Assembly: GCA_965218545.1 (NCBI GenBank)
Contig: CBDCLB010000002.1
Span: forward strand, 776,622 to 840,621
Direction: 5' to 3'
DNA: 64,000 bases
DNA from: Acidobacteriaceae bacterium
GTDB taxonomy: Bacteria; Acidobacteriota; Terriglobia; Terriglobales; Acidobacteriaceae
Numbering within the stretch: position 1 is the first letter of the stretch; every line of letters starts with the position of its first letter. Below are positions 1 to 50,779 of the stretch, piece by piece. The translations under genes were made by a program, and so were the position numbers. The notes below the pieces were generated by a model, which ran no database searches, was not told where the DNA came from, and worked only from the letters and a program-made list of their open reading frames with translations.

Positions 1-1
1 C

Positions 2-1411
2 CCGCTCTGCGTCGACCTGGATGGAACCCTCGTCAAGAACGACACCCTGGTAGATTCCCTCCTGGTCATGGTCCGCACCCACAGCCAAGCCCTCTTAAGC
101 GTTCCGGGGTGGATTCTCAAAGGAAAAGCGACGCTGAAGCGCGAGGTCACTGAGCGGGTTGAGCTCGACGCCGCGCACCTGCCTTACAACAAGCCGGTGC
201 TCGCCTATCTCGAACAGCAAAAAAGCCTGGGGCGCAGCCTTTTTCTGGCCACCGGAGCGGATCGCGTGCTCGCCGAGCGCGTGGCTCGGCACCTGGGGAT
301 TTTTGACGGCGTGCTCGCGAGCGACGGGGCGACCAACCTGACCGGCCACAACAAGCTCGCTTCGTTCGAGCGCCGTTTCGGCGCCGGTGGCTTCGATTAC
401 ATCGGCAACGCCCGTCCGGACGTGCCTCTGCTCACACACGCCCACACGCCCATGGTGGCAAACCCTGACTGCGCCCTACGGCGGGCTATCCGCGACCGCC
501 GCTTCGCACCGCAGCAGGTGTTTCTCGACCGCGCCTCGCCGATCCAGGCGCTTCGAAGGGCGATGCGGGTGCATCAGTGGGCAAAAAACGTCCTCATCTT
601 TGTGCCCCTTCTGCTGGCCCATGCTTTGCGCCTCGGCACGGTGCTCCAGGCAGTGGCGGCTTTTGTGTGCTTTTCGCTGTGCGCCTCGTCCACGTACATC
701 GTCAACGACCTGCTCGACATCGAAGCCGACCGCCGCCACCCCCGCAAGCGTCGCCGCCCGTTTGCCGCGGGTGACCTCCAGGCCAAAACAGGAATCCTGC
801 TTTCGGCTGCGCTGCTTGCCGCGTCCCTTACCATCGCCGCGCTGCTTTCCGGAGCATTCCTGGCCTACCTGCTGCTGTACCTCGTTTCCACGCTCTCCTA
901 CTCGCTGTATCTCAAGCGCATTGTGCTGGTCGATGTTGTGCTGCTTTCAGGCTTATACACATTGCGCCTGCTGGCCGGGGCGGCGGCCACTTCCATTCCC
1001 ATCTCGCCCTGGCTCGCGGGCTTTTCCGTCTTCCTGTTCCTGTCGCTCGCCATGGTCAAGCGCTTCGCCGAGCTCCAAAACATCCGCGCCGCGGGCCAGG
1101 TCCCTTCCAACGGCCGCGGCTACCTGCTTTCCGACATCGAGCAGATGCGCTCCTTCGGCACCGCCAGCGCCTATGCGTCCGTGGTGGTCTTTTCGCTGTA
1201 TATCAGCGGGGGCGACGTCACCAGCCTGTACCCCCACCCCCAGCGCATGTGGCTCATCACCCCCATCATGATCCTGTGGATCAGCCGCGTATGGCTCCTG
1301 GCCAGCCGGGGCGAGCTCGACGAAGACCCGGTAATCTTCGCGGTCACCGACCGCATGAGCCTTCTTCTCGGCTCCATTGCTGTGCTCGTGCTTTTCCTCG
1401 CTATCATCTAA
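2..1411 (+). CDS. HAD-like phosphatase fused to UbiA-family polyprenyl-phosphate (phospho)ribosyltransferase; 5' end outside window
   Basis: Frame 2 is open from the window edge, so the start lies upstream of the first ATG at 68. PLCVDLDGTLVKND is HAD motif I; later LATGAD, GHNK and IGNARPD fit HAD motifs II-IV. The multi-TM C-terminal half carries NDLLDIEADRRHPRKRRRPFAAG (UbiA NDxxDxxxD signature). Confidence 0.8.
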   Translation, partial: PLCVDLDGTLVKNDTLVDSLLVMVRTHSQALLSVPGWILKGKATLKREVTERVELDAAHLPYNKPVLAYLEQQKSLGRSLFLATGADRVLAERVARHLGIFDGVLASDGATNLTGHNKLASFERRFGAGGFDYIGNARPDVPLLTHAHTPMVANPDCALRRAIRDRRFAPQQVFLDRASPIQALRRAMRVHQWAKNVLIFVPLLLAHALRLGTVLQAVAAFVCFSLCASSTYIVNDLLDIEADRRHPRKRRRPFAAGDLQAKTGILLSAALLAASLTIAALLSGAFLAYLLLYLVSTLSYSLYLKRIVLVDVVLLSGLYTLRLLAGAAATSIPISPWLAGFSVFLFLSLAMVKRFAELQNIRAAGQVPSNGRGYLLSDIEQMRSFGTASAYASVVVFSLYISGGDVTSLYPHPQRMWLITPIMILWISRVWLLASRGELDEDPVIFAVTDRMSLLLGSIAVLVLFLAII

Positions 1412-2794
1412 GTGCGCGCTTTCAAGCGCGCGACCCGCACCGGAGCCCCAAATATGCCTGCAACCGTGGCCGAAAAGCCCGCCCCCCTACCCGCGTTTGA
1501 GTCCTGGGGCCGCTATCCCAAGCTCCGCGCCGACCTCCGCCCCCTTTCCTGGACCACTGACTTCCCGCCCAGGCAGGCCCTGCGCGGGCCCATGCTCCCG
1601 GTCGGGGCCGGGCGCTCCTATGGCGATGTTTGCCTGCTCGAGGACGGCACGCTGTTCCACGCGCGCGGCATGGACCACATGCTTCACTTTGACCCCGCAA
1701 CTGGAATCCTGCGCTGCGAGGCCGGCGTCCTGCTGTCGGAGATTCTCGATTTCGCCGTCCCGCTCGGCTTTTTTTTGCCCGTCACTCCAGGCACTAAGTA
1801 CGTTACCGTCGGCGGCGCGATCGCGAACGACATCCACGGCAAAAACCACCACATCGCCGGAACCTTCGGCTGCCATGTGCTCCGTTTTGAGCTGGTGCGG
1901 TCGGACGGCTCGCGCCTGATCTGCTCGCACCGCGAAAATCGCGACTGGTTCGCCATGACCATTGGTGGCATGGGGCTTACCGGCCTCATCACCTGGGCCG
2001 AGGTCAGGCTGCGGCCCATTGTTTCCCGCAAGATGAATTACCAGGGCGACAAGTTTGTCGGCATCGGCGAGTTCATCGAGCTTTCCCAGAAAGCCGCAAA
2101 CGTGGAGTACACCGTTTCCTGGATTGACTGCGTGTCCACCGGCAAGAACTTCGCGCGCGGCATTTTTATGCAGGGCACGCACTCGGAAAAACCCGATACG
2201 CTCCGTCGCTCCAAAGAGCCGAAACTCGTCTTCCCCGTCGACCTGCCCGAGTGGGCGCTCAACAAATACTCAATCGGCCTGTTCAACTTTGCGTACTATA
2301 ACAAGCAGCGCGGCAAGACCGTTACCTCGCTCGTGGACTACGAGCCGTTCTTCTATCCTTTGGACTCAGTGCTGAAGTGGAACCGCATGTACGGCAAAAA
2401 GGGCCTGCTGCAGTTTCAGTGCGTCCTGCCCTGGGATGAAGACCAGCGCGGCATCACGCAGATCATGAAGGCGATCACCGGCTCCGGCCTTGCGTCGTTC
2501 CTGGCCGTGCTCAAGGTGTGCGGCGACATCCCTTCGCCCGGCTTTATGAGCTTCCCAAAGCCCGGCATCACGCTCGCGCTCGACTTCCCCATCCGCGAGG
2601 AGGTCTCCTTTGACCTGCTCAACCGGCTCGCCAACATCACGCTCGACCACGGCGGAAGGATGTACCCGGCCAAGGATGCGACCATGACCGCCGCCCAGTA
2701 CCAAGCGTTTTACCCGCAGTGGGAGCGGTTTGCCGCTTATGTCGATCCGGCATTCGATTCGGCTTTCTGGCGGAGGGTTACAGGGCGTGGCTAG
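1412..2794 (+). CDS. FAD-binding (PCMH-type) oxidase, DprE1-like
   Basis: VGAGRSYGDVCL matches the GRSYGD flavin-binding motif of the DprE1/alditol-oxidase class, and the ~460 aa size fits. GTG 1412 directly abuts the upstream TAA; ATG 1454 is an alternative start. Confidence 0.8.
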   Translation: MRAFKRATRTGAPNMPATVAEKPAPLPAFESWGRYPKLRADLRPLSWTTDFPPRQALRGPMLPVGAGRSYGDVCLLEDGTLFHARGMDHMLHFDPATGILRCEAGVLLSEILDFAVPLGFFLPVTPGTKYVTVGGAIANDIHGKNHHIAGTFGCHVLRFELVRSDGSRLICSHRENRDWFAMTIGGMGLTGLITWAEVRLRPIVSRKMNYQGDKFVGIGEFIELSQKAANVEYTVSWIDCVSTGKNFARGIFMQGTHSEKPDTLRRSKEPKLVFPVDLPEWALNKYSIGLFNFAYYNKQRGKTVTSLVDYEPFFYPLDSVLKWNRMYGKKGLLQFQCVLPWDEDQRGITQIMKAITGSGLASFLAVLKVCGDIPSPGFMSFPKPGITLALDFPIREEVSFDLLNRLANITLDHGGRMYPAKDATMTAAQYQAFYPQWERFAAYVDPAFDSAFWRRVTGRG

Positions 2795-3548
2795 GCGTGA
2801 ACCCGTCAAACCCAATAAGGTCCTCGTCCTCGGCGCCACTTCCGCGATAGCCCAGGCCACCGCGCGCCTCCTTGCCGACCGGGGAGCGAGCTTTTTTCTC
2901 GTCGCGCGCGATCCCTATAAGCTGGGCGCCGTCGTGGCCGACCTCCAAACCCGCGGCGCAAGGGAGGTTTACTCGCTCACGCTCGACCTCGACAACCCCG
3001 CCGAGCACCCCATGATTCTCGACTCGGCCGTGCAAATCCTGGGCTCGATCGACCTGGCGCTGCTCGCTCACGGTGTGCTTGGCGACCAGCGCGCCGCTCA
3101 ACACGACCCCGCCGTGGCCGAAGCGATTTACCGGACGAATTTTCTTTCGCCCGCCTCGCTCATTACGCTGCTTGCGAACTACTTTGAACTGCGCGGCGGG
3201 GGCTGCCTGGCCGTGATCTCGTCCGTTGCCGGGGACCGCGGACGCAAAAGCAACTACGTTTACGGGGCATCCAAGGGCGCGCTTTCGATTCTGCTCGATG
3301 GGGTGCGCAACCGCGTGGACCGCGCCGGGGTTCACGTGCTCACGATAAAGCCCGGCTTTGTCGCGACCCCCATGACCGCGCACCTCCCGCGCGGCCCCTT
3401 GTTCGCAGAGCCGCGCGCGATCGGCCGGGGCATTCTCCGCGCCGTCGCCCGACGCCGCGATACCGTGTATCTCCCAGGTTTCTGGCGGCCCGTCATGTTC
3501 GCGGTGCGGAGCATTCCCGGGCGCGTTTTCAAGAATTGGAACATGTAG
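2787..3548 (+). CDS. short-chain dehydrogenase/reductase, DprE2-like
   Basis: KVLVLGATSAIAQATARLL is the Rossmann motif and YGASK is the YxxxK catalytic motif. GTG 2787 overlaps the upstream stop by 8 nt. The longest ORF (from 2730) would overlap by 65 nt, so the shorter start is preferred. Confidence 0.75.
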   Translation: MARREPVKPNKVLVLGATSAIAQATARLLADRGASFFLVARDPYKLGAVVADLQTRGAREVYSLTLDLDNPAEHPMILDSAVQILGSIDLALLAHGVLGDQRAAQHDPAVAEAIYRTNFLSPASLITLLANYFELRGGGCLAVISSVAGDRGRKSNYVYGASKGALSILLDGVRNRVDRAGVHVLTIKPGFVATPMTAHLPRGPLFAEPRAIGRGILRAVARRRDTVYLPGFWRPVMFAVRSIPGRVFKNWNM

Positions 3549-3663
3549 CCCTCCCCCCGGGGCAAAAAGGGACTGGTCCGCTATCCGGGCACATAGATCG
3601 AGCGAATTGTTACAATCGTGTAAATGCGCGTCGGCTTAGCGCAAAGTTGGGATTTGCTCGGCT

Positions 3664-4215
3664 ATGAATATCTACATCCTTCGCCACGCCAGCGCGGGCA
3701 CTCGCCGCGCCAACCCTCTCGTGGATGTGAAACGTCCGCTCGACAAAGAGGGCAAGGGGCAGTGTCTGCTGGTCGGCAGCTATCTCAACGCGCTCAAGGT
3801 GCATTTCGACCTGATTGCCTCCAGCCCCCTAAAGCGGGCCATGCAAACCGCCTCGCTGGTTGGCACGGAGGTCGGCTACGAGAGCAGGGTTCAGGCGACC
3901 GATGCCCTGCGACCTGAAACCTCGACCGCCGCGTTTCAAACCTTTATCAACGAACTCAGTGGGCAGGAAAACGTGCTGTTGGTAGGGCACAACCCAAACC
4001 TGCCGTTGTTTCTAGGGTCGCTCATCATGAACGGCAGCGCGGCTCCGGGCCGTGCGGCGATCCGCTTGCGTAAGGGCGCGATCGCGCGCATCGACCTCAC
4101 CCGCCGTCCGGGCATGCTGCACTGGCTGGTAGATCCTCGCATCCTTCGCGGCGTGTATGGCAGTGCCACCAAGCCCGTGAGGCGGCGGGCGCTCAAGACG
4201 CCCGGCAAGGGGTGA
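3664..4215 (+). CDS. sixA: histidine-phosphatase superfamily protein, SixA-like
   Basis: N-terminal IYILRHASAG (RHx catalytic motif) and LVGHNPNL (second His motif); the ~180 aa size is typical of SixA. Confidence 0.75.
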   Translation: MNIYILRHASAGTRRANPLVDVKRPLDKEGKGQCLLVGSYLNALKVHFDLIASSPLKRAMQTASLVGTEVGYESRVQATDALRPETSTAAFQTFINELSGQENVLLVGHNPNLPLFLGSLIMNGSAAPGRAAIRLRKGAIARIDLTRRPGMLHWLVDPRILRGVYGSATKPVRRRALKTPGKG

Positions 4216-4239
4216 AGCCGAGCGCGGCGCCTGCTATTC

Positions 4240-6261
4240 TTGGCGTCGAGCAGCCGATCGAAAGCCGCAATCCCGATCCGCCCGGAACAGGAAGCTTTGT
4301 CGACCACCCAACCCTCCGAATTCTCCTTGGCACCCGAACCCACACTGCCCCGCTCGCCCCGGAAAGCCTGGACGCTGCTGTTGCTTTTGTTCCTGGCGGT
4401 CCACTTTGCGGCGCTCTTTTCTCCGGCACTGCTGGACGACGCGGACGCAACCCATGCACAGGCCGCGGCCCACATTGCCCGTACGGGTGACTGGGTCACG
4501 CTGTATGTCAACGGGATCCGGTACCTTGAAAAGCCGCCGCTTCCCTACTGGCTCGCCGCGATCGGCTATCACCTGTTTGGCTACGACGTGTTTGCGACCC
4601 ACCTGCCGATGACGCTCGCCGTGCTGGGGAATGCGATCCTGGCCTGGGTGTGGGCGAGGCGGGCGTGGGGGGACCGGGCGGCGTTTTATGCAGCGCTGAT
4701 GATGCTTACTGCCGTGGGTGTGTTTCTGTTTACACGGATCTTTATCCCTGAATCGATCTTGAGCTTTCTCGTCGCGCTGGCGCTTTGGGCGTTCTTGACC
4801 TCGCTTGAGGACCGCAAGCCGAACCGGATGTACCTGGCGTACGGCTCGCTAGGGCTGGCTCTGCTGGCCAAGGGGCTGATCGCGCCGGTGTTTTTCGGAG
4901 CGGCGGTTGTGTTCTACCTGCTGATTACGGGCGATTGGCGGCGGTGGCGGGAGTTCCGCTTGGGAACCGGCATCTTGCTGTTCCTGGCCATCGGGGCACC
5001 CTGGCATGTGTTGGCGGCGCTCAGAAATCCGGACCACGGCCACCCGGTCGGCAATGTGCCCACATTCGGGAACGTACACGGTTTCCTGTACTTCTACTTC
5101 GTCAACGAACACTTCCTGCGTTTCCTGGGCAAGCGCTACCCGCACGACTACAACAAGCAGCCGGGGTGGGTTTTTTGGGTCGGGCACCTGGCCTGGCTGT
5201 TTCCGTGGTGCCTGTTCTTCCCTGCCGCGCTCGTGCGTCTGTGGTCGCGGCGTAAGCAGCTTTGGGCGGGGCTCTTCCCGGACCGTACCGATACGCTGAC
5301 CTGGCTCGATGAGCACCCAACCGCATTTCACGCTGCGTTCGCGGCGCGGGGGGAGCGTTTCCGGGCGCGAACCACGCTCCTCTTAGGCCTTTACGCCGGG
5401 TTCATTCTGATCTTTTTTTCGCTTTCCACCAACCAGGAGTACTACACCTGGCCGGCTTACTTTGCGCTTCTGGTGCTCCTAGCCGGCTCGTTGGCATTGC
5501 AGGAGCGGCCTTCGCTGGGGCTCCGCGTAAGCAGCGGCTGGCTGCAGGCCGGGTTTTGGGCGTTCGCTGTGGTGGGTGTCGGGTGCGCGGCGGCGCTGGG
5601 CTACGGGCTTTGGAGCTCGCGGGGGCTCCCCTTTGTTCCGGACATCGGCACGCTGCTGGCGCACCGCGGGGTAGGCGACTATTCACTCTCGATGTCGCAC
5701 TTTTTCGACCTGACGGGGCCTTCGTTCGCGGCGCTGCGGGAGCCTGCGGTGCTGGCGGCCGTTGCGCTGTTTTTCGGCCCGCTCGGGGCGCTTTGGCTGC
5801 GGCGGCGCGGACACACGTTTGAGGCTACGGCTTCGGTCGGGCTCACCATGGCGGTGTTTCTGGTGGCCGCGCACATCGGCTTAGTGCGCTTTCAACCGCT
5901 GCTTTCTTCGCGCACCATGGCAAAGATTGTGAACGCAGCGCACGACCCGCGGGCACAGCTCATCGTGTACGGCGACCAGGCGAACGCTTCGTCGCTGATC
6001 TTCTACACACACAAGCAGGCGCTGCTGGTCAATGGGCGGACGTCCTCGATGATTTGGGGATCGTTTTACCCGGACGCGCCGCATATCTTTTTGGTGGACG
6101 CGGACTTGGTGCGCATGTGGCGGGCGGCTGAGGGGACCGGGCAGCGGCTATGGCTGTACGTGCCGCCGGAGGACAACGCGCATGTGCGGGCGCTGCTCGC
6201 CCGGCTGCCGCTGGTGGATGTGAAGGAGTTGTCGGACCGGACCTTGTATAGCAATCGGTAA
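4240..6261 (+). CDS. GT-C fold glycosyltransferase, ArnT/PMT_2 (GT39/GT83-like)
   Basis: 673 aa with many hydrophobic segments. The first periplasmic loop carries YLEKPPLPYWL, typical of ArnT/PMT-family lipid-phospho-sugar-dependent transferases. Confidence 0.8.
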   Translation: MASSSRSKAAIPIRPEQEALSTTQPSEFSLAPEPTLPRSPRKAWTLLLLLFLAVHFAALFSPALLDDADATHAQAAAHIARTGDWVTLYVNGIRYLEKPPLPYWLAAIGYHLFGYDVFATHLPMTLAVLGNAILAWVWARRAWGDRAAFYAALMMLTAVGVFLFTRIFIPESILSFLVALALWAFLTSLEDRKPNRMYLAYGSLGLALLAKGLIAPVFFGAAVVFYLLITGDWRRWREFRLGTGILLFLAIGAPWHVLAALRNPDHGHPVGNVPTFGNVHGFLYFYFVNEHFLRFLGKRYPHDYNKQPGWVFWVGHLAWLFPWCLFFPAALVRLWSRRKQLWAGLFPDRTDTLTWLDEHPTAFHAAFAARGERFRARTTLLLGLYAGFILIFFSLSTNQEYYTWPAYFALLVLLAGSLALQERPSLGLRVSSGWLQAGFWAFAVVGVGCAAALGYGLWSSRGLPFVPDIGTLLAHRGVGDYSLSMSHFFDLTGPSFAALREPAVLAAVALFFGPLGALWLRRRGHTFEATASVGLTMAVFLVAAHIGLVRFQPLLSSRTMAKIVNAAHDPRAQLIVYGDQANASSLIFYTHKQALLVNGRTSSMIWGSFYPDAPHIFLVDADLVRMWRAAEGTGQRLWLYVPPEDNAHVRALLARLPLVDVKELSDRTLYSNR

Positions 6262-6384
6262 GGCAGTTGACTGCGACTCAGCAGCTCATCCACTCATCAG
6301 CTTCACTCCCGACAAACTGGGGCGGCTGCGTTCCGTTTTGGTATTTCGGAAATTACCTCGGTACTTAGCGCTTACATTCTGCGA

Positions 6385-6939
6385 TTGTTTCAATTCCGGA
6401 TCGGAACTATTCTCCGCGACAGAGGCGTGGGAAACGTGTCATTCACAACCAAAACCGGAATCTTGCAGAGTGTCTTGGTAGCTTTGCTGGTCGTAACCTG
6501 CTCAGTGAAGATCACCTATGCTCAAGGCGGGCAAAGCGTTTCTGCTGAGATTAGAGTGCAGCAGGATCGCGAAACGAGACGCGCTCAATTTGAGATGGCA
6601 AGCAAGTGCGCGCGGGAGGCCAGGCGTCAATTTGAGTACCAAGGATACAGAATTGACGCTCACACTACTTTCACCAATCGCTACAATCCTCAGTCCAATC
6701 ATTGCTTTTTTGAGATCGATTCCAGCCAGCCTTTTAAAGGCGAGCTGACCGAAACGAAGTTTTTAGCTGATGCCGTCGAGGGCAAAGTGTTGGGAAGATA
6801 TTCCTGGATGAGCAGGCCCGGCAAGCAGTTTTGGGAGGTTGAGCCCAACATATGCTCTGTAACTATGCCGTCCGGTGAGGAAAAGGATTGCAGCTCGGAG
6901 CATGAGTTCGATGCACTGGTGGCTCAATACATGCGTTAG
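6385..6939 (+). CDS. hypothetical exported Cys-containing protein (low-GC ORFan)
   Basis: ORF in a visibly lower-GC stretch with an N-terminal hydrophobic segment (ILQSVLVALLVVTCSVKITYAQG). The start is uncertain: TTG 6385, or GTG 6427/6436. No recognisable family. Confidence 0.45.
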   Translation: MFQFRIGTILRDRGVGNVSFTTKTGILQSVLVALLVVTCSVKITYAQGGQSVSAEIRVQQDRETRRAQFEMASKCAREARRQFEYQGYRIDAHTTFTNRYNPQSNHCFFEIDSSQPFKGELTETKFLADAVEGKVLGRYSWMSRPGKQFWEVEPNICSVTMPSGEEKDCSSEHEFDALVAQYMR

Positions 6940-6967
6940 CTCCAAAGTCATTCACGCGGTTCTTCCC

Positions 6968-8152
6968 TCAATCTTGAGCGCTTTGCATCAGGCCGTGCTC
7001 GCCAAGCCGGTAGAGGTGGCCGCGCCAGAGAATGGTACCGCTGGTGTAGCTAGCTGCCCAGTAAAAAAAGCCCATGAGGTCGCGGAGGGGGTAAAGCAGC
7101 GTGGTGCGGAGGAGGGCTCGCTCCCCGACAACGGTTTTGCCTATGAGTAGGGCAAGCGTCATGCGGGATAAAACAGCGTAAAGCAGGAGGTCGGCACCGA
7201 GGAAGGCGTGGCGGAGCAGGGCGGCGGCCGCGCAGGCGAGCAGGCCGAAGGGGACCGCAAAGGTGAGCCCCGTGCCGAAATGGCCCTTGGGGCGGGAAAA
7301 GCGGGTGCTCTTCATCCAGCGAATCTGGTGCTTGATGCTGGTGAGGAAGGTGAGGTTGAGCACGATGTGGTCGATAACATGGCGGCTCAACATAACTTTG
7401 TAGCCCAACGCGGCTACCCAGTTCCCGAGCAGGAAGTCGTCGGAGCAGTAGGGGCCGAGCTTCGCGAAGCCGCCCATGCGGTGCACGGCCGCGCGGCGGA
7501 CAGCCATAGTGGGGCCAAGCAGGAACTGCATGCCCTCAACAAGGTTGGCGGCGAGGACCCCGGAGGTCATCTCGACAGACATGCCGGAGGCCTCAAGCTT
7601 GGCCCATAGGCCGCGCTCGGCGATGCCGCGGTACAGGCAGGTAACGGCACCGACCTCGGGATCGCGAAAGTCGGAGGCGACCTCGCGTATATAGTTCGGG
7701 GAAACGCGAACATCGGAGTCGCTGATGATGAAGATGTCGTAGGTGGCGGCGGCCCCCATGCGCTCAAGAGAGCTGACCTTGGCGTTGACGAAGGGGGGCC
7801 CTTGCACGGCGAGGAACTGGGTGGGGATCTGTGGGTAGTCAGCCGCAACGGCGCGGGCGATCGACAGGCCGGGGTCGTGGGGATGGCGGGCGCAGAAGAG
7901 GATTTCGAAGGGGCCGGCGTAGTCCTGCTCGAAAAAGGTGCGGATGTGCGCGGCGAGGCCGGGCTCGGTGCCGTGGAGGGGCTTGAACAGCGAAACAGGG
8001 GGCGCGAAGACGGGGGCCAGAACATCGTGGCGGGCCATCTCAGAGCGTCGGCGTTCGCGGAGAAAGCGAAGAACACCGACGGCAACCATGCCGGCGAAGA
8101 CAGACGAGGTAAGGAGGCCGAAGATGCCGAGAATGAGGAGAAGTGTGAGCAT
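6968..8152 (-). CDS. GT2-superfamily glycosyltransferase, Glyco_transf_21 / HpnI-like (ceramide glucosyltransferase family)
   Basis: N-terminal TM, then PVSLFKPLHGTEPGL...DIFIISDSDVRV...AVTCLYRG. This is the pattern seen in HpnI/ceramide glucosyltransferase-type enzymes, followed by C-terminal TM helices. Confidence 0.7.
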   Translation of the reverse strand: MLTLLLILGIFGLLTSSVFAGMVAVGVLRFLRERRRSEMARHDVLAPVFAPPVSLFKPLHGTEPGLAAHIRTFFEQDYAGPFEILFCARHPHDPGLSIARAVAADYPQIPTQFLAVQGPPFVNAKVSSLERMGAAATYDIFIISDSDVRVSPNYIREVASDFRDPEVGAVTCLYRGIAERGLWAKLEASGMSVEMTSGVLAANLVEGMQFLLGPTMAVRRAAVHRMGGFAKLGPYCSDDFLLGNWVAALGYKVMLSRHVIDHIVLNLTFLTSIKHQIRWMKSTRFSRPKGHFGTGLTFAVPFGLLACAAAALLRHAFLGADLLLYAVLSRMTLALLIGKTVVGERALLRTTLLYPLRDLMGFFYWAASYTSGTILWRGHLYRLGEHGLMQSAQD

Positions 8153-8180
8153 GCGCGCCGTGACCAGAGTACCCTACCGG

Positions 8181-8579
8181 CTAGCGCCTGGTACGGCCGG
8201 GGGTAACAACAGTTGGCCGGCGTAACGGTACCAGGGCGACGGGACCTGCTTCCGGCGCGACTTGCATGCGGGCGATCATCTCGGAGCGGACGTAGTCGAC
8301 AAAGCCCTGCATTTGGCGGTTCATCTCCTCCATGCGCTCGCGCATTTGCAGGATGATGGCGATGCCGGAAATGTTGACGCCGAGGTCGCGGGCGAGATTG
8401 AGAATAAACTCCAGCCGCTCGAGATCGTCGTCAGTGTACATACGGGTGTTCCCTTCGGTGCGGGAAGGCTTGAGGAGACCTTCGCGCTCGTAAAGGCGGA
8501 GGGTTTGGGGGTGGATTTCGTACATCTCCGCAACGGAGGAGATCATGTAGGCGCCTTTGGTTTTGCGTTTGGTGGGCAT
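8181..8579 (-). CDS. hspR: MerR-family heat-shock repressor HspR
   Basis: YMISSVAEMYEIHPQTLRLYEREGLLKPSRTEGNTRMYTDDDLERLEFI is a MerR HTH as in HspR, and the gene lies downstream of dnaJ. ATG 8579 is preceded by AAAGGAGAA; the longer ORF to 8753 would run through the repeat elements. Confidence 0.85.
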   Translation of the reverse strand: MPTKRKTKGAYMISSVAEMYEIHPQTLRLYEREGLLKPSRTEGNTRMYTDDDLERLEFILNLARDLGVNISGIAIILQMRERMEEMNRQMQGFVDYVRSEMIARMQVAPEAGPVALVPLRRPTVVTPGRTRR

Positions 8580-32988: not shown

Positions 32989-34349
32989 GGGCGTTCTCCC
33001 GCGACGTCATTCCGCACCACTTTGCCGCCCTTCATTACAAACCGAACCCGGCGCACCGCCGAGATATCCGTGAGCGGATCGCCGTCTACCGCGATCACAT
33101 CCGCGTAGAAGCCGGGCTTAAGCTCCCCCATCTGCCCTTCCCAGCCCAGGAGCCGCGCGCCATGGAGCAGGTCGGCGCGCAGCACATCGGGCGCGGGCAT
33201 CCCGTACTCCACCATTAGCTCCAGCTCCCGCCCCTGCGTTCCATGCGGGAACGGTCCCACGTCCGAGCCGACTGCCATGGGCACACCCGCTTCAAGCTGC
33301 TTGCGAAACTCCGCCCTATGGAACTGGAGCAGCGCACGCTCACGCGAGGCGGTTTCAGGCGTTGCCGCGTGCGCGGCGAAGTACTCGGAAATCGTGAACG
33401 TCGGGACCGCATAGATCTGCTTTTCCTTCATCAGCCGCATGGTGTCCGGGCTTAGCTGGTAGGCGTGGTCGATCGAGGCCACGCCCGCCGCGGCTGCGAA
33501 CCCCGCGCCGGGCTCGGCTGTGCAGTGCACCCCCACCCGCGTCCCCACCCGCGCCGCTTCCGCGACCGCCGCCGCCAGCTGCGCTTCCGTGTACTGGTAG
33601 GGCGCGGTCAGCTTCCCATCCGCGAAGTGGTCCGCGCCCGTTTCGTAGATCTTCGTGAAGTCCGAGCCTTCTTTGCGCTGCTCCCGCATCACGTGGATGA
33701 GCTCGTCTGCGCTATCGGCGTAGGTTGCGTTGCCGGGCACGTGCGCGGCCGGGTTGTAGTGGAGCGCGTCCTCGTGCCCGCCCGTAATGCTGATGGCGTT
33801 GCCGCTCACCCGCATGCGCGGCCCGGGGATCAGGCCGGCGTCGATCGCCTCGCGCACGGCAGTATCGGCCGAGCCGGCCCCCTCGGTGCCCATGTCGCGC
33901 TCCGCCGTGAAGCCGGCCATCACATCGGCCCGCGCGGCCAGCTCCGCCCGGATGGTGCGCTCGGGGACGGATTCGATGACGGTTTGCAGGTCCTCCGCCC
34001 CGGGGTGGAGAAACAGGTGCACGTGCGCGTCGATCAGCCCGGGCATCAGCGTTGTGGAGCCCAGGTCGAGCACCCGCGCCCCCGGCGGATGGGGCACGGA
34101 GGCACCCGCGGCGACGATGCGCTCGCCCTCCACCAGCACCTCGCCGGGGGAAACGAGCGCGCCTCGACTCACGTCAAGGAGATGTGCTCCGCGCAGCACC
34201 GTCGGAGCGGAAGCCGGGAGCTGCTGCGCGCCCAACGCCGCTGCCGGCGCAAGGACCGCGAGTGCAATGCAGCGCAAAGCCGGGAAAGGGGCCCAAAGCA
34301 TGGCAAGGATGCTAGCACGGCTCACGGCGTAAGCAAGCGTCGCGGCCAA
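32985..34349 (-). CDS. metal-dependent amidohydrolase (imidazolonepropionase/prolidase-like)
   Basis: TLMPGLIDAHVHLF is the HxH metal motif, followed by later VHCT and D residues of the amidohydrolase fold. ATG 34301 (MLWAPFPAL... signal peptide) is an alternative start. Confidence 0.8.
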   Translation of the reverse strand: MAATLAYAVSRASILAMLWAPFPALRCIALAVLAPAAALGAQQLPASAPTVLRGAHLLDVSRGALVSPGEVLVEGERIVAAGASVPHPPGARVLDLGSTTLMPGLIDAHVHLFLHPGAEDLQTVIESVPERTIRAELAARADVMAGFTAERDMGTEGAGSADTAVREAIDAGLIPGPRMRVSGNAISITGGHEDALHYNPAAHVPGNATYADSADELIHVMREQRKEGSDFTKIYETGADHFADGKLTAPYQYTEAQLAAAVAEAARVGTRVGVHCTAEPGAGFAAAAGVASIDHAYQLSPDTMRLMKEKQIYAVPTFTISEYFAAHAATPETASRERALLQFHRAEFRKQLEAGVPMAVGSDVGPFPHGTQGRELELMVEYGMPAPDVLRADLLHGARLLGWEGQMGELKPGFYADVIAVDGDPLTDISAVRRVRFVMKGGKVVRNDVAGERP

Positions 34350-34475
34350 GGATTCCCTTCTTGGGAATCCTCAGCTGCGCTTCCCCATTTTGAAACCCCC
34401 GCTGCCCTGATTGCGAACATGCGGCTTGCCGCGCGCCAAACGTGTGGCAGACTTACCCAAGAGGTCACCCCATCT

Positions 34476-35315
34476 ATGAAGCTTTCGCTCGTGGTCGCGT
34501 CCTTGGGGCGCACAAGGGAGGTTGAAGAACTGTTCGAAAGCTTCCGCGAGCAGCCTTTCCGAGACTTTGAAGTCCTTTTGGTTGATCAGAACGACGATGG
34601 ACGGCTTGATCCCATCGTTGAACACTACGCGTCCCAGTTCACGCTGAGGCATCTGCGTTCGGATGTCCGCAATGCGTCGCACGCGCGCAATGTGGGGCTC
34701 GCCGAAGCCGCGGGCGAGATTGTGGGCTTCCCGGACGACGACTGTTTGTACCTGCCCGGCACCATGGAGCGCGTGGTGGCGCACTTTGAAAGCGACCCCG
34801 GCCTCGTTTTGCTGGGCGGCAGCTGCGTTTCGCCCACAGGCGAGCTGGTCAACGGCCGCTGGACGCTGCACTCCTGCCCCATCACCGAAAAGAACGTTTG
34901 GACCACTATGCAAGGGTTTTCCATGTGGATCCGCACCGCGGAAGCCCGCTCGGTCGGGGGCTTTGACCCCGCGATCGGCCCCGGCACCCCGTGGGGGTCG
35001 AGCGAGGAGCCGGACTTCGGCCTGCGCCTGCTCCGGCGCGGGTACCGGGGCTTTTACGATGTCAAGCTGGGCGTCCGGCACCCGGACAAGAGCCTCAGCG
35101 CGCACGCCACCGCCCGCGCTTTTGAGTACGGCGCGGGGATGGGCCGCGTGCTGCGCCGCCACTCGATCGCCGCCCCCATCACCCTTCCCTACTTCATCCG
35201 CCCTTTCGGCGGCGTGCTGCTTTCGCTCCTCCGGGTGCGCGGCGGCCATGCCCGCTACTACTGGGGCACCCTGCGTGGGCGCCTGTTTGGTTATCTAGCC
35301 CAGCCCGCGCGCTAG
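34476..35315 (+). CDS. glycosyltransferase family 2
   Basis: MKLSLVVASLGRTREVEELFESF...FEVLLVDQNDD and FPDDDCLY (DxD). The 616-aa track ORF is a 5' shadow extension antisense to the amidohydrolase gene. Confidence 0.8.
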   Translation: MKLSLVVASLGRTREVEELFESFREQPFRDFEVLLVDQNDDGRLDPIVEHYASQFTLRHLRSDVRNASHARNVGLAEAAGEIVGFPDDDCLYLPGTMERVVAHFESDPGLVLLGGSCVSPTGELVNGRWTLHSCPITEKNVWTTMQGFSMWIRTAEARSVGGFDPAIGPGTPWGSSEEPDFGLRLLRRGYRGFYDVKLGVRHPDKSLSAHATARAFEYGAGMGRVLRRHSIAAPITLPYFIRPFGGVLLSLLRVRGGHARYYWGTLRGRLFGYLAQPAR

Positions 35316-35338
35316 CTTTCGCCGGCGAGACAAGGTTT

Positions 35339-36277
35339 ATGGAAGAGCAAGCATACATCCCGGCGAAAGGCACCCCCGCACCACAGCTCCAGATTGTGGT
35401 TGGGATTGCCACCAGCGGACGCCCGGAGGTCCTCGCCGAAACCCTGGCCGATCTCCTTCGGCAATCCCAACCACCCTCTGGAGTGGTGGTTCTGTACGGC
35501 AAGAAAAGCGACATTGAGCAGCTGCCCGCGCGTTTTCCGTTTTTCCGCTTTATCCAAGGCGCAGGCGGACTTTGCGAAAAGCGCAACCGCATTCTCGATG
35601 AGATCGCGGGCGGAATGGCGGAAACGGATCTTCTGCTGTTTATCGACGACGACTTTCTTCTTGACCGCGACTATCTCCGGGTGATCGCGCATGCCTTCGC
35701 GGCGAACGGGAGCATGGCCGCCGCTACGGGTGCCGTGCTTGCCGACGGCGCCAAGGGCCCGGGACTCACGGTGAACGAAGGCCGGGCCACGCTTGGCCGC
35801 GCCGGCTTCCCTGGCCCGCACCTTGACGAGCCGCGCCCGGCGTTCAACACGTACGGCTGCAACATGGCTTTCCGGCTTGAAACAATCCGGGAGCACGGGC
35901 TCCGGTTTGACGAGCAGCTGCCCGCCTATGGCTGGTACGAGGACATCGATTTCTCGCGGCGGCTGCTTGCCCACGGCTCCGTCATGCACGTTCCCGGGGC
36001 CCGGGGTGTGCACCTCGGCACCAAGGCGGGGCGTGTTTCCGGCCGGCGGCTCGGCTATTCTCAGGTTGCAAACCCTGCCTACCTGTTCCGCAAGGGGAGC
36101 TTCCCCTTGGGAAACACGCTGCGCTCCATCGGACGCAACTTTGCTTCCAACCTCGTGCGGAGCGTAGCTCCGGAATCGTATGTAGATCGGCGAGGGCGGC
36201 TGCGCGGCAACCTTCTGGCTTTCGGAGACTTTCTGCGCGGGCGCATGCACCCGAGCCGTATCTCCCGGATGAACTGA
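35339..36277 (+). CDS. glycosyltransferase family 2
   Basis: IVVGIATSGRPEVLAETLADLL and LLFIDDDFLL (DxD). Confidence 0.75.
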   Translation: MEEQAYIPAKGTPAPQLQIVVGIATSGRPEVLAETLADLLRQSQPPSGVVVLYGKKSDIEQLPARFPFFRFIQGAGGLCEKRNRILDEIAGGMAETDLLLFIDDDFLLDRDYLRVIAHAFAANGSMAAATGAVLADGAKGPGLTVNEGRATLGRAGFPGPHLDEPRPAFNTYGCNMAFRLETIREHGLRFDEQLPAYGWYEDIDFSRRLLAHGSVMHVPGARGVHLGTKAGRVSGRRLGYSQVANPAYLFRKGSFPLGNTLRSIGRNFASNLVRSVAPESYVDRRGRLRGNLLAFGDFLRGRMHPSRISRMN

Positions 36278-36727
36278 ATGCCCGCGAAGCTTAACTTGCG
36301 ATTACCGTGTTGGTTAACAATGTAACTCGTACCCGGTTTATAAAAATAGAAAATGCAATTTTCCCGGATCATCTTTGTGTTCTTTGGTAATCCATTCTTA
36401 TGGAAGAGATCTGAAGGCTTGCCATATGAAAATCGACCGTAAAGACTCATGCATTCCGCGGTTCCGCCGATAGGTCTTGTAGACAGGTCAGGTTACCTCA
36501 CCAAGCTTTTCGGAGAGATTTTGGTGACCTAAGAGTGCTTGAGTAACTCTCTCCTGTTAATGCTACTTTTGATCAGAAACGCAGCGGCTGGATAAATTTA
36601 CCTACCGACAGATCGCAAAAGCGACAAACCTGCACAGCATTGCCCCAAAAGCGGGCAGCGCACACTTCAGCTCCCACCCGAACCGCGATGCGGGGAGGGC
36701 GGCACAGCCAAAAGGCCGGATGCAACT
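36278..36727 (+). promoter_or_regulatory. AT-rich non-coding region upstream of wza-wzc (probable promoter/regulatory region)
   Basis: ~450 nt with no credible ORF. This is the lowest G+C by eye in the window (for example TTTATAAAAATAGAAAATGCAATTTT). Confidence 0.4.
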
Positions 36728-37873
36728 ATGACATTGTTTCCCTGCTTGCACCACTCCATCTGTTCCGTTTCCCAAACCAGCTCCCAAACCAGCTCCCAAA
36801 CCAGCTCCCAAACCAGCTCCCAAACCAGCTCCAAGACCAGCTCCAAGGCCAGCTCCAAGACCAGCTCCAAGGCCGGCGCTCCGGGCGGCCCCTTCCCCAC
36901 ACGCTTTTTCCTCGCCGCCGGGGCGCTGCTCGCCTTTGCTTCCGCTTCCCCGTGGCTGCATGCTCAGGCAGCGCCGGTGGCGGAGCCCGGGATGGGGCCC
37001 GCGCCGGTTGCGGATGTGCTTCCCTCCCAGGCGCTCGGCCCCGACGACCTCCTCCAGATCATGGTTCCTTACTGCCCGGAGCTTTCCCGCTCCTTCCGGA
37101 TTTCTTCCGACGGCACGCTCGCGCTTCCCTTACTCAAGCAGCGGATCCCCGTTGCCGGCCTCCAGCCCGCGCAGGTTGAAAAGCGGATCGCGGCCGAGCT
37201 GGTCCGGGAACAGGTGCTCACCGATCCGTCCGTGAACGTGGCAGTGATCGAGTACCGCTCCAAGCCCGTTAATGTCGTGGGCGCGGTCAATCATCCCCTT
37301 ACCTTCCAGGCGACAGGGGAAACCACGCTGCTCGACGCCATCGCCAAGGCTGGCGGCCTGGCACTGAACAGCGGCCCCGCGATCACCGTGACCCACCGCG
37401 CGCAAGCGCCGGACGGGACGACGCATATCACCGTGCAGTCGATTCCCGTGCGCGGGTTGATTGAGGCTTCCGACCCCAAGCTCAATGTCCGGCTCACGGG
37501 CGATGAGGAGGTGCGGGTGCCGGAGGCGGGCAAGATTTTTGTGGCCGGCAACGTCCGTAAACCCGGTGCCTTCGCCATGCAGGATAACTCCGACACAACC
37601 GTGATCAAGGCTTTGGCCATGAGCGAAGGGCTCCAGCCCTATACGGGGAAACAAGCGTTTATTTACCGGGAGCAAGGGCCCGGCGTGCCCCGGGAGGAGA
37701 TCGCCGTCCCGCTTTCCCAAATCCTGGCCCGCAAAGCCCCGGATGTCGTGCTCCACCCGGATGACATCCTGTACGTCCCTGAAAACAACGGCAAACGGAT
37801 AACAGCGAAGGTTTTGGCCCAGCTCGCCGGCTTTGGCTCAAATACCGCGGCAGGCGTTCTGATTTACCACTAG
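36728..37873 (+). CDS. polysaccharide export protein (Wza-like: Poly_export + SLBB)
   Basis: DDLLQIMVPYCPELSRSFRISSDGTLALPLL...VAGLQPAQVEKRIAAEL is a Poly_export domain, followed by SLBB-like repeats. The N-terminus is unusual: (SQTS)5(SKxS)n precedes the hydrophobic signal segment. Confidence 0.8.
   Translation: MTLFPCLHHSICSVSQTSSQTSSQTSSQTSSQTSSKTSSKASSKTSSKAGAPGGPFPTRFFLAAGALLAFASASPWLHAQAAPVAEPGMGPAPVADVLPSQALGPDDLLQIMVPYCPELSRSFRISSDGTLALPLLKQRIPVAGLQPAQVEKRIAAELVREQVLTDPSVNVAVIEYRSKPVNVVGAVNHPLTFQATGETTLLDAIAKAGGLALNSGPAITVTHRAQAPDGTTHITVQSIPVRGLIEASDPKLNVRLTGDEEVRVPEAGKIFVAGNVRKPGAFAMQDNSDTTVIKALAMSEGLQPYTGKQAFIYREQGPGVPREEIAVPLSQILARKAPDVVLHPDDILYVPENNGKRITAKVLAQLAGFGSNTAAGVLIYH
36771..36878 (+). 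repeat. 12-nt tandem repeat, ~9 copies, in frame within the wza 5' end
   Basis: CCCAAACCAGCT occurs five times perfectly (36771-36830), followed by variant units CCAAGACCAGCT, CCAAGGCCAGCT, CCAAGACCAGCT and CCAAGGCCGGCG. Confidence 0.95.
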
Positions 37874-38005
37874 CAAGCGGTCCCGAGGATCGGCAGCGAA
37901 GCCGGCCTCGCCGCACAAAGCTGTTTCACTTCCGGGATGGAAGCTCCCTTTCACTTCCTCCTTTGGCTCCAGCGTTCACAATCGTTTCTTTTTGCGAGGG
38001 TCCCC

Positions 38006-40183
38006 ATGCCGTCCAGCTTCAACAACAAGCCCCGAATCCTTCCCGCGGCCCCGCCGCGCGAGCTCCTCCACTACGCGCCCGCCCCAGCCCCGCAGGAGCC
38101 GGAAGAGCTCCTACCCATGCACCACTACCTGTGGCTGCTCCGCAGGGCTTGGTGGAAGATCGCGCTTGCGGTTGTTGTGTGCACCGGGCTCACGGCGCTG
38201 CTCTGCTTTCTTATCCGTCCGGTATACGAGGCAACGGCCCGTATAACCGTGGACAACAAGCTGCCTTCGAGTGTGCTCGGCGACAGCACTGCCGAAAACG
38301 GCTCGGATGTCGAGGAGTTCCTGAATACGGAGATGGACCTGATCCAGTCCGACTCAGTCCTCCGCCCGGTTGCCGAACAGTTCCACCTGCTTCCCCAGCT
38401 CAAGCACGGGGCGCAAGGGCAGCCGCAGGGGCCGGTTTCGCTGACAAACCTGACGGTGACGCACCCGCTCAACAGCCTTCTGCTCAAGGTCACCTATCGC
38501 TCGCACGACCCTAGGCAAGCCGCGGACGTCGCAAACGCCGTCGCCCAGTCCTATATCGATACCGTGTACTCCACGCGGGTCCGCTCTTCCATGAACATGT
38601 CCGGCTTTATGGAAAAGCAGCTCGACGACCTGAAGGAAAACATGAACCGGAGCGCCGCGGCCCTGGCCGCGTATGAGCGGCAGCTCGGCGTCATCGACCC
38701 GGAACAGCAGACCAGCATCCTCGCCGCGCGCGTTCTTCAGCTCAACCAGGAGTACACGGAAGCGGAAAACGAGCGCATCCGCAAGCAGACCTCCTACCGG
38801 GGCGTAGAAAACGGCAATGGGGCGGCCGTTGAAATTTCCCCGCAGGCCGAACAGCTGAGCAAGCTCCAACAGCAGCTGCAGGACGCGCAACAGAAGATGG
38901 CCGTGCTCAAGACCATGTACGGGCCGGCCTACCCGGAATACAAAAAAGGCGCGAATGAACTCGCCGAGGTCACCCGGCAGTACAACGCCGCCCGTGCAGA
39001 TATCGGCAAGCGGATCCAAACCGACTACAGCGAAGCTGCGAGCCATGAGGCCATGCTGCGCGACGCGCTTGCCCAAGCCAAGGCGCAGGCCGACAAGCTC
39101 AACGCGAGCTCCATCCAGTTCCAGCAGCTGAAGCGCGACGCCGACGCCAACAAAACCCTCTACAACGAGCTGTTCCAGAAGATCAAGGAAGCTGGCATCA
39201 ATTCGGGTTTTCAAAACTCGGCCATCCGCATCGCGGACGAAGCGCGGCCCCAAAGCTCGCCCGTGTTTCCCAAAAAGGGCATTTTTATCGCACTTGGCTT
39301 CTTCCTGTCGCTCGTGTTTTCTTCGGCGGCCGTGTTGATCGCCGATATGCTCGACAAAAGCGTACGCGACCCGGAGCAGGCCCGGCGCGCGCTCCAGGTC
39401 GAGGTGCTCGGCGTGCTCCCGGATGTCCAGGAGCTGAAGCCCGCCGGCCGGCAGCTGCTGCTTGAAAACGGCGACAGCACCTCCCAGCGAGAGCCGGATG
39501 TGGACTGGAGCCGCTCGCAAGGGGCCTACACGGAGGCGATCCGCACTATGCGCTCGCTCGTCCTGCTCGAACGCACCCGCGAGCCGCTCCGTTCGCTGCT
39601 GGTCACAAGCGCGCTCGCGGGTGAAGGGAAGTCGACCTGCACGGCGCACCTTGCGATCGCGCACGCCCTCCAGGGGCGCAAAACCCTGCTGATCGACGCC
39701 GACCTCCGGCGGCCCTCGCAGCACGATCACTTCGCTCTGCCGAACCGCGAAGGGTTGGCCGATGTGATCCTGGACGGCAGAAGCCTCCACGACGTCCGCC
39801 AGGAGATCCGGGGCGTGGAAAACCTCCACATCGTGACCGCGGGCGAGCTGTTTGCCCAAGCGGCCCACCTGGTTGGTGCCCGCATGCCGTCCCTGCTCGC
39901 CGACGCCGTGGAGGATTACGATCTGGTTGTCATCGACGCCCCCCCCATGCTGGGGCTGGCCGAGCCGATCCAGATCGCCTGCGCCGCCGACGCAACCATA
40001 CTGATCACGCAGGCCGGACGCACTAACCAGGAGGCCGTCCAGGCCGCGCTCGGCACCCTCAACCGGCTGGACGTCAACGTCCTTGGCCTGGTGCTCAACA
40101 AAGTGCGGCGCGAAATGAGCCACACCTACCAGCACCTCGGCGTCTACGAGCAGTACGCGAGCCACGCGTTGAGCGCGAGCTAA
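38006..40183 (+). CDS. polysaccharide co-polymerase / BY-kinase (Wzc/GumC-like tyrosine autokinase)
   Basis: Wzz-type N-terminal domain with a coiled coil and two TMs. Kinase motifs: Walker A SALAGEGKST, A' LLIDADLRRP, B LVVIDAPP. The C-terminal tail contains Tyr residues (YQHLGVYEQY). ATG 37937 is an alternative start. Confidence 0.88.
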   Translation: MPSSFNNKPRILPAAPPRELLHYAPAPAPQEPEELLPMHHYLWLLRRAWWKIALAVVVCTGLTALLCFLIRPVYEATARITVDNKLPSSVLGDSTAENGSDVEEFLNTEMDLIQSDSVLRPVAEQFHLLPQLKHGAQGQPQGPVSLTNLTVTHPLNSLLLKVTYRSHDPRQAADVANAVAQSYIDTVYSTRVRSSMNMSGFMEKQLDDLKENMNRSAAALAAYERQLGVIDPEQQTSILAARVLQLNQEYTEAENERIRKQTSYRGVENGNGAAVEISPQAEQLSKLQQQLQDAQQKMAVLKTMYGPAYPEYKKGANELAEVTRQYNAARADIGKRIQTDYSEAASHEAMLRDALAQAKAQADKLNASSIQFQQLKRDADANKTLYNELFQKIKEAGINSGFQNSAIRIADEARPQSSPVFPKKGIFIALGFFLSLVFSSAAVLIADMLDKSVRDPEQARRALQVEVLGVLPDVQELKPAGRQLLLENGDSTSQREPDVDWSRSQGAYTEAIRTMRSLVLLERTREPLRSLLVTSALAGEGKSTCTAHLAIAHALQGRKTLLIDADLRRPSQHDHFALPNREGLADVILDGRSLHDVRQEIRGVENLHIVTAGELFAQAAHLVGARMPSLLADAVEDYDLVVIDAPPMLGLAEPIQIACAADATILITQAGRTNQEAVQAALGTLNRLDVNVLGLVLNKVRREMSHTYQHLGVYEQYASHALSAS

Positions 40184-40195
40184 GGAAGGTCTTCC

Positions 40196-41332: not shown

Positions 41333-41759
41333 CCGGTACCCTCAGCCCCGGTTCGGCGCCCGATTTTACCGGAGCGGGTACCCCGGGCACGGCCGGCACC
41401 CTTTTTAGATCGCCATCGGGTAGGGTTCCCGGCACATCCCGGCTGCAATGCAGGCCCGTGCCGAGGAGTTCCGGTCCGAAGCCTCGTGCGGCGTCCGCAG
41501 GCTGCTTCCCAAGCCCGCATCACCCGCTCGCTCCACCAACTACCTTCCCCGCCGCGTGCTCCAAGGCGGAGGAAAAACGATCCCCGGCCGCCAAGCCTCC
41601 GAGCCCCCCAAGAGCGGCGGGGAACCGGCGCGGGCCGCGACGGTACCGCCCGTCAAACAGTTGCCGCATTTCCTGCGGAAGCCCTTTGCTTCCGTTTTCT
41701 GCCTCCCCCCCAGATGAGGCGTGCTTTTCGCAGATGCCGCAAGGCACGAGATCGAGCCC

Positions 41760-43217: not shown

Positions 43218-43238
43218 AGCGCCACGAGACACGCGACC

Positions 43239-50717: not shown

Positions 50718-50743
50718 GGGCGGGCGTTTGCGGCTTTCCACGA

Positions 50744-50778: not shown

Positions 50779-50779
50779 T

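Follow-up and report, generated by a model that had tools for sequence, protein, structure and literature searches.

Do the five closely packed genes at the start of a 64,000-nt stretch from an Acidobacteriaceae bacterium (assembly GCA_965218545.1, contig CBDCLB010000002.1, positions 776,622 to 840,621; hereafter the window) form one operon that makes lipid-linked D-arabinofuranose (D-Araf) and hands it to an acceptor? An initial annotation of the window had read them as a complete donor pathway plus its transferase. The donor part of that reading stood, since the first three genes (G1 to G3) encode homologues of the donor enzymes, but the five-gene unit and the SixA-like protein as the pathway phosphatase did not. 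We consider it probable that the region consists of two independent, vertically inherited Acidobacteriaceae modules, A (G1 to G3) and B (G4 and G5), which became adjacent through a rearrangement. The features are as follows.

G1: 1..1411, + strand, HAD and UbiA domains (Pfam); 5' end cut by the window start
G2: 1454..2794, + strand, FAD_binding_4 domain with GRSYGD (Pfam); open reading frame (ORF) open from 1412
G3: 2787..3548, + strand, adh_short short-chain dehydrogenase/reductase (SDR) (Pfam); ORF open from 2730
Breakpoint between the two modules: 3562..3602, no strand, from the limits of blastn homology
G4: 3664..4215, + strand, His_Phos_1 / SixA (Pfam, NCBIfam)
G5: 4240..6261, + strand, PMT_2 GT-C glycosyltransferase (Pfam); alternative start 4297

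ORF calling placed all five genes of region 1-6261 on the + strand, and their GC content at third codon positions (GC3, 0.78-0.82) is in the range of genuine genes in the source genome. With the likely starts, the intergenic distances from G1 to G5 are about 42, -8, 115, and 24-81 nt. Domains were called with Pfam and NCBIfam profile searches. The closest relatives of every gene tested were from Acidobacteriaceae isolates or metagenome-assembled genomes (MAGs), for example Acidipila, Paracidobacterium, and Silvibacterium. The packing, the domain readings of all five genes, and the acidobacterial, non-actinobacterial character of the genome were therefore as the initial annotation had described them.

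Conservation of the gene order was examined in two sets of loci. For the fusion-anchored set, one genome per species was scanned with G1, a HAD-UbiA fusion gene; this gave at least 478 relatives, and the best 80 were Acidobacteriaceae. The G5-anchored set comprised 80 metagenomic loci. The initial annotation had named a lack of conserved synteny in relatives as a point that would count against its reading, and the five-gene order was found in none of these 160 related loci; even the closest relative, with 88-93% identity, does not have it. Neither sixA nor G5 was within 10 kb of the fusion gene in any of the 80 fusion-anchored loci, and the three-gene module was at none of the 80 G5-anchored loci. 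Genes for a DprE1-like oxidase and a DprE2-like reductase follow the fusion gene in 60 of the 80 fusion-anchored loci, and G1 to G3 thus form a robust unit. Across these loci, G1 shows 62-88% identity. For the three-gene module, the range is 62-93% in the 80 best-matching Acidobacteriaceae genomes, taken at species level from at least 478 matching stretches.

The junction between the two modules is sharp. The blastn homology to loci with the three-gene module stops at 3546-3561, and the homology to sixA loci (L001-L003) begins at 3603. Four independent close-relative assemblies have the order RND(-) (resistance-nodulation-division pump), small ORF, sixA, GT-C, GT21(-), MerR, and DnaJ. In a relative with a single contig of 4.10 Mb, sixA and the GT-C gene are at about 0.947 Mb, while the three-gene module, flanked by a phosphorylase gene and an AcrB-MFP-OEP pump operon, is encoded on the opposite strand at about 2.52 Mb, so that the two blocks are 1.57 Mb apart and in opposite orientation. 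One large inversion, with breakpoints that would fall in the small ORF/sixA interval and the dprE2-like/acrB interval, both intergenic, would therefore give the order fusion-DprE1-DprE2 / sixA-GT-C seen in the window. Beyond G5, the gene order (GT21, MerR, DnaJ, Fpg, DnaK, MFS, and amine oxidase genes) is collinear with that of the 4.10 Mb relative. GC and GC3 are equal to the left and right of the junction. Neither direct nor inverted repeats were found there, and the window contains no Rfam family or tRNA; there is no indication of a mobile-element mechanism. No terminator-like site was found in 3548-3664, and scanning for promoters and terminators gave no signal above background. The apparent five-gene operon is thus probably the product of one rearrangement.

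What does module A encode? G1 is predicted to be an N-terminal HAD phosphoribose phosphatase (PRP) fused to a C-terminal UbiA-type polyprenyl-phosphate phosphoribosyltransferase (PPPRS). Its frame 2 reads PLCVDLDGTLVKND from nt 2, about 12 codons being lost before the window start, and HAD motif I, DLDGT, with the nucleophilic Asp is at nt 14-28. G1 matched the NCBIfam model NF006088 "UbiA family prenyltransferase" over its full length, including the HAD part, with 567.9 bits (cutoff 351). The top solved structure for the UbiA part was the Mycobacterium tuberculosis decaprenyl-phosphate phosphoribosyltransferase (DPPRS) Rv3806c (8j8j, 9.5e-29), and the second-best structure family, digeranylgeranylglyceryl phosphate (DGGGP) synthase, reached only 1e-4. 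The Asp-rich loop NDxxDxxxD, NDLLDIEADRRH in G1, aligned to NDVRDVEADREH in Rv3806c. Among the NCBIfam models, those of DPPRS scored 1e-36 to 1e-45, haem O synthase 1e-10, and UbiA 6e-8; the score against the DPPRS equivalog was 154.7 bits, under the cutoff of 207. A quinone or haem prenyltransferase was ruled out, as the DPPRS models and the Rv3806c structure are far ahead, and the assignment of the UbiA domain to the Rv3806c type in the initial annotation was borne out. The same fusion is known from Citrobacter youngae: according to Kelly et al. (PNAS 2024; PMC11127046), ORF15 of this species is an N-terminal HAD PRP fused to a UbiA-type PPPRS, and it was shown biochemically to produce polyprenyl-P-ribofuranose from phosphoribosyl pyrophosphate (PRPP).

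G2 is most likely a DprE1-like FAD-dependent oxidase that would act on the 2'-OH of polyprenyl-phospho-ribose. It probably starts at ATG 1454, since homologues cover the query beginning there. Among solved structures, DprE1 matched with 1.1e-63 and the next family with 1.8e-10. The NCBIfam DprE1 model scored 317 bits (2.5e-94), under its equivalog cutoff of 500, while the sugar-lactone oxidase models reached only 6e-9, which rules out an unrelated sugar-lactone oxidase. In the alignment to the structure match, G2 keeps the catalytic Lys418 of DprE1 and the HGKNHH motif (His132/Lys134). Cys387, the covalent target of benzothiazinones (BTZ), is Ala in G2; Ala at this position is also found in naturally BTZ-resistant species. 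G3 is most likely a DprE2-like SDR reductase. Its probable start is GTG 2787, which gives an 8-nt overlap with G2, and the same overlap is present in two relatives (L004 and L169). DprE2 was its top solved structure (2e-32; second match 5e-15). G3 scored 285.6 bits against NF005489, over the cutoff of 267, and 180.4 bits against the DprE2 model, under the equivalog cutoff of 250; it holds the SDR triad Ser...YxxxK and the nucleotide motif GATSAIA. The oxidase and the reductase were thus named correctly from the start. G1, G2, and G3 all score under the actinobacterial equivalog cutoffs, and they are therefore homologues rather than members of the actinobacterial equivalog groups.

Together, the products of G1 to G3 most likely make polyprenyl-phosphate-D-Araf, and each chemical step proposed here is based on homology and on what Kelly et al. 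report (PMC11127046). Module A would act at the cytoplasmic face of the membrane, where the UbiA domain would move ribose-5-phosphate from PRPP to polyprenyl phosphate, giving polyprenyl-P-ribose-5-P. The fused HAD domain would then strip the 5-phosphate to give polyprenyl-P-ribose, the DprE1-like flavoenzyme G2 would oxidise C2' to a 2-keto intermediate, and the DprE2-like SDR G3 would reduce it with inversion to polyprenyl-P-beta-D-Araf. The predicted pathway phosphatase is thus the HAD part of the fusion protein G1 itself. The lipid carrier is probably undecaprenyl, unlike the decaprenyl of mycobacteria. The consumer of the arabinose donor and the flippase may be encoded elsewhere, with G5 as one candidate consumer.

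The neighborhood of module A in the relatives contains no obvious partner. Within 10 kb of the module or its fusion gene in the 80 loci, no conserved polytopic partner or flippase was found in a hydropathy screen and no G5-family paralogue with a G5-family hidden Markov model. In window 1-8300, there is no small polytopic ORF that could be a flippase (MATE, SMR, GtrA, EamA) beside the synthase, though the window starts inside G1. The sole partner-like exception among the 80 loci is a MAG (L065) with a GT87 GT-C gene and four acyltransferase genes downstream. The usual upstream neighbors are a GT1 gene, a DUF4432-like gene, a galactokinase (GalK) gene, and a phosphorylase gene. In 34 of the 80 loci, an AcrB-MFP-OEP tripartite RND pump is encoded on the same strand about 250 nt downstream of the module (e.g., 12377-18577 in L169). 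In Acidipila rosea and three MAGs, the module is preceded by a second, divergent RND operon that is MdtABC-like, and the close relatives of the window have such an operon upstream of sixA. At least eight full-length fusion loci have no DprE1/E2 genes within 10 kb (L035, L051, L054, L059, L072, L077, L079, and L084), and in these loci the fusion gene may be a second copy or belong to a variant that makes ribofuranose only. In L035, L054, L077, and L059, genes of DUF5009 or HGSNAT-like polytopic acyltransferase type are about 4-5 kb downstream of the fusion gene.

The fusion gene also occurs on plasmids. A tblastn search with G1 identified 85 plasmid records, including those of Rhizobium, Azospirillum, Burkholderia, and Granulicella tundricola, while no relative was found in the phage collection searched. 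Plasmid pACIX904 of Granulicella tundricola MP5ACTX9 (NC_015059.1; L165), a mobilizable plasmid of 115 kb, encodes a fusion protein with 63.5% identity. About 8 kb away, on the opposite strand, are two genes with the annotations FAD-binding oxidoreductase and SDR, and the pathway genes adjoin a GT8 gene and toxin-antitoxin genes. Since these genes are on a mobilizable plasmid, horizontal movement within the family is possible. The partners of the fusion gene on other replicons are diverse. In Azospirillum lipoferum, the partner is a GT87 GT-C that is fused directly: plasmid AZO_p3 of strain 4B (NC_016623.1; L166, 8507-11413) encodes a 968-aa protein with GT87 GT-C, HAD, and UbiA parts, directly followed by a 124-aa EamA-family transporter. 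This combination of transferase and synthase in a single polypeptide is not among the architectures described in the parts of PMC11127046 consulted. The partner is a Glyco_transf_22 protein in a Sphingomonadaceae plasmid; in Burkholderia stagnalis it is an unclassified protein of 811 aa, which is accompanied by GtrA.

Module B begins with G4, which scored 80.6 bits against TIGR00249 (sixA), over the cutoff of 74.5. Its N-terminus, MNIYILRHASAG, holds the RHx catalytic motif and has no signal peptide, and the nearest solved structures are Alr0221 and SixA. In the G5-anchored set, sixA is near the GT-C gene in 48 of the 80 loci, mostly 2.6-4.5 kb upstream, and in both loci inspected (L093 and L150) Ppx/GppA and CHAD genes on the other strand lie between them. 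Because sixA is beside these polyphosphate genes in other lineages, it is unlikely to be the phosphatase of the pathway. G4 is a SixA-like conserved neighbor of the GT-C and probably not a pathway enzyme; the histidine phosphatase had initially been placed in the donor pathway, but outside the subclade of the window the Ppx/GppA and CHAD genes separate it from the GT-C.

G5 is predicted to be an ArnT-family (PMT_2) GT-C that relies on a polyprenyl-phosphate-sugar donor, and it would move the sugar from such a donor onto a periplasmic acceptor. It starts at 4240 or 4297; the orthologue P0001 has 654 aa. G5 matched Pfam PMT_2 with 1.2e-20, and its only solved relative by sequence was ArnT (5ezm, 2e-24). 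An AlphaFold2 model of G5 (pLDDT 75, pTM 0.81) was compared with solved structures by Foldseek. It matched ArnT 5f15 over the full length (E 3.9e-19, TM 0.80 normalised to ArnT), and the superposition covers the C-terminal alpha/beta periplasmic domain. The matches to the Emb arabinosyltransferases were remote (E 0.012-0.65, TM about 0.33); no Emb/Aft-type arabinofuranosyltransferase was recognized in G5, as only ArnT was found among solved structures by sequence. The DDAD of the first loop and RYLEKP, part of the polyprenyl-phosphate binding motif YLEKPP, are invariant in 33 orthologues. ArnT proper was ruled out as an identity for G5, since the score against the ArnT equivalog NF009784 was 90.7 bits, far under the cutoff of 567, and there is no arn context, the neighbors being sixA, GT21, MerR, and DnaJ. 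Hundreds of G5 orthologues are found across the Acidobacteriaceae at 51-78% identity, with GT21, MerR, and DnaJ downstream. BLASTP of G5 against two candidate GT-C genes adjoining plasmid fusion genes showed no similarity. In genus-level counts, the plasmids with G5-like genes (Ralstonia, Cupriavidus, Pantoea) and those with the fusion gene have only Paracoccus in common among the genera listed.

The GT21 gene (6968-8152, - strand) is convergent with G5, an arrangement that is conserved across the Acidobacteriaceae. It scored 286.9 bits, just under the cutoff of 310 for HpnI of bacteriohopanetetrol glucosamine biosynthesis, and subdivision 1 Acidobacteria have been reported with hpnI and hpnJ and without hpnK (PMC5462960). 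The stop codons of the GT-C and GT21 genes are separated by about 700 bp (6262-6967) with a GC content of 0.51, compared with 0.63-0.64 in the flanking genes, while the spacing in relatives is 18 to about 205 nt. This segment contains an orphan ORF (6385-6939, + strand) of 184 aa with one N-terminal hydrophobic segment, which matched no Pfam or NCBIfam family and had no tblastn match in 164 related loci. It looks like a small lineage-specific insertion.

Further along the window, a Wzx/Wzy-type exopolysaccharide (EPS) locus is on the + strand at 33465-46242, about 27 kb from the donor genes. It encodes two GT2-type proteins, a Wza-like exporter, a Wzc-like tyrosine kinase, a GT4 protein, a Bac_transf initiating transferase, a weak Wzy_C protein, and a 449-aa protein matching no family. 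It is a possible, unlinked source of an acceptor for a pentofuranose side chain. Next, at 46898-57729, glycoside hydrolase (GH) genes (GH39, GH36, GH20, GH92, and GH125) are densely clustered, and after them come pentose-phosphate genes, those for 6-phosphogluconate dehydrogenase and RpiA; this is typical of the carbohydrate-degrading content of Acidobacteriaceae.

Could the arrangement or the assignment have another explanation? An assembly chimera in this metagenome-assembled contig would account for an arrangement that is unique among 160 loci, and among isolate genomes the searches gave no match of 100% identity to the window, the nearest relatives being MAGs. However, there is no repeat at the junction to mislead an assembler, the composition is the same across it, the breakpoint is clean and intergenic with intact genes on both sides, and the source contig is 927,800 bp long, so we regard a chimera as very improbable. 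For module A, the three genes might end at polyprenyl-P-ribofuranose or the 2-keto intermediate, or serve a small-molecule or secondary-metabolite pathway, instead of making an Araf donor for a glycan. The scores of G2 and G3 under the DprE1 and DprE2 equivalog cutoffs (317 against 500 and 180 against 250) would fit this, as would the absence of visible DprE1/E2 genes from about 20 of the 80 fusion loci; several of the contigs concerned are short, but in at least eight loci the full 10 kb downstream is present. On a Burkholderia plasmid, moreover, the same genes adjoin isonitrile-synthase genes and extra oxidoreductase genes. Nevertheless, the oxidase/reductase pair, with its 8-nt overlap, stays closely linked to the fusion gene in 60 of the 80 loci, Lys418, His132, and the SDR triad are kept in G2 and G3, and in other bacteria DprE1/E2 homologues go together with glycans that contain Araf (PMC11127046). 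We thus consider it improbable that the module stops short of, or serves something other than, a glycan Araf donor.

The other question is whether G5 is an arabinofuranosyltransferase that consumes the polyprenyl-P-D-Araf of G1 to G3, here and at a distance in other Acidobacteriaceae. Its acceptor would then be a conserved envelope molecule, such as lipid A/core, a hopanoid glycolipid, or EPS. Several points weigh against our reading of two independent modules and favor such a role. The ArnT-family GT-C gene is 750 nt downstream of the donor genes, on the same strand and with a gap of only 115 nt and no predicted terminator between G3 and G4, an adjacency that is functionally suggestive and would be improbable for arbitrary genes. 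Both modules are present in all six chromosome-scale contigs examined, and G5 has the ArnT-type polyprenyl-phosphate motif and the invariant DDAD loop. No other GT-C or flippase is conserved beside the three-gene module, and therefore a distant consumer must exist, for which G5 is a core-conserved candidate. GT-C partners elsewhere span several families, so an ArnT-type partner is conceivable. Furthermore, the upstream neighbors of G1 are out of view, since the window begins inside this gene. On the other side, the adjacency is absent from the other 160 loci, even from the closest relative, and a single inversion accounts for it; sixA retains its native upstream region of 61 nt. G5 has no similarity to the two plasmid candidates, is structurally far from the Emb enzymes, and has a plasmid distribution that overlaps that of the fusion gene only in Paracoccus among the genera listed, while co-occurrence is uninformative if both modules are nearly universal in the clade. 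Because a suggestive adjacency has to be weighed against the lack of conserved linkage and a simple rearrangement, we consider G5 a doubtful consumer of the donor. An extended version, in which G5 is the long-range partner of the donor module, a conserved envelope lipid (lipid A/LPS core, where LPS is lipopolysaccharide, or a hopanoid glycolipid via the neighboring hpnI-like GT21) carries D-arabinofuranosyl decoration throughout the family, and the two modules were captured in one transcription unit here, seems unlikely to us. The reading of two modules joined by a rearrangement remains the one we prefer.

How does the locus compare with known systems? It resembles the mycobacterial decaprenyl-phospho-arabinofuranose (DPA) pathway (Rv3806c, DprE1 Rv3790, and DprE2 Rv3791) in its homologous transferase, oxidase, and reductase, for each of which the mycobacterial enzyme is the top solved-structure match, and in the same reaction logic. 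It differs in that the predicted phosphatase is a fused HAD domain instead of a PAP2 protein (Rv3807c), G1 to G3 are under the actinobacterial equivalog cutoffs, Cys387 is replaced by Ala, and there is no Emb/Aft-type GT-C. The pilin D-Araf system of Pseudomonas (para)aeruginosa PA7/Pa5196 is likewise a Gram-negative donor pathway with DprE1, DprE2, and PPPRS homologues, but unlike here the donor genes come with a transferase of their own, the GT-C TfpW, and the acceptor is known to be pilin. Azorhizobium noeC/H/O is another Gram-negative version of the donor pathway, with the Nod factor as acceptor. ArnT, the lipid A 4-amino-4-deoxy-L-arabinose (Ara4N) transferase of GT83 (Cupriavidus 5EZM/5F15), resembles G5 in its full-length fold, the EKPP motif, and the acidic motif of the first loop. 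G5, however, has 23% identity to it and no arnABCDEF neighbors, and it belongs to an Acidobacteriaceae orthologous group of its own, with the GT21/hpnI-like, MerR, and DnaJ genes.

According to PMC11127046, the P. aeruginosa synthase is without a fused HAD domain, unlike G1. Module A resembles the extracytoplasmic pentofuranose system of C. youngae O1/O2 (ORF15, ORF14, and ORF12, with auxiliary epimerases) in a HAD-UbiA synthase architecture with NDxxDxxxD, entry from PRPP, and DprE1/E2-type helpers for Araf. A flippase and a GT-C complete the "three-component" periplasmic glycosylation system described there, and DprE1/E2 homologues go with systems whose glycans contain Araf. In contrast to C. 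youngae, there is no adjoining MATE/SMR/GtrA flippase or GT136-type GT-C here or in the 80 acidobacterial relatives; the donor module is outside any O-antigen or EPS locus; and the adjacent GT-C is of the ArnT family and is adjacent in the source genome only.

The HAD-UbiA synthase with DprE1/E2 is thus a published, widespread route to lipid-linked pentofuranose. PMC11127046 describes the combination of this synthase with a GT-C, a flippase, and DprE1/E2 helpers as widespread, and this paper, the NF006088 model, and the 85 plasmid records make the earlier view that such sets are reported only sporadically out of date. No mention of Acidobacteria was found in that paper or its supplement, our literature searches gave none linking Acidobacteria with DprE1 or lipid-linked arabinofuranose, and those on arabinose in acidobacterial EPS or LPS gave nothing usable. 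What keeps the locus of interest is that the donor module is conserved across the Acidobacteriaceae, which makes it taxonomically interesting. Elsewhere, D-Araf is known above all from the cell wall of mycobacteria, and the Acidobacteriaceae are a dominant family of acid soils. If the assignment is true, envelope chemistry would gain a useful target in a conserved D-Araf structure of these abundant soil bacteria, and the one genome that has the module next to an ArnT-like enzyme would supply one candidate transferase.

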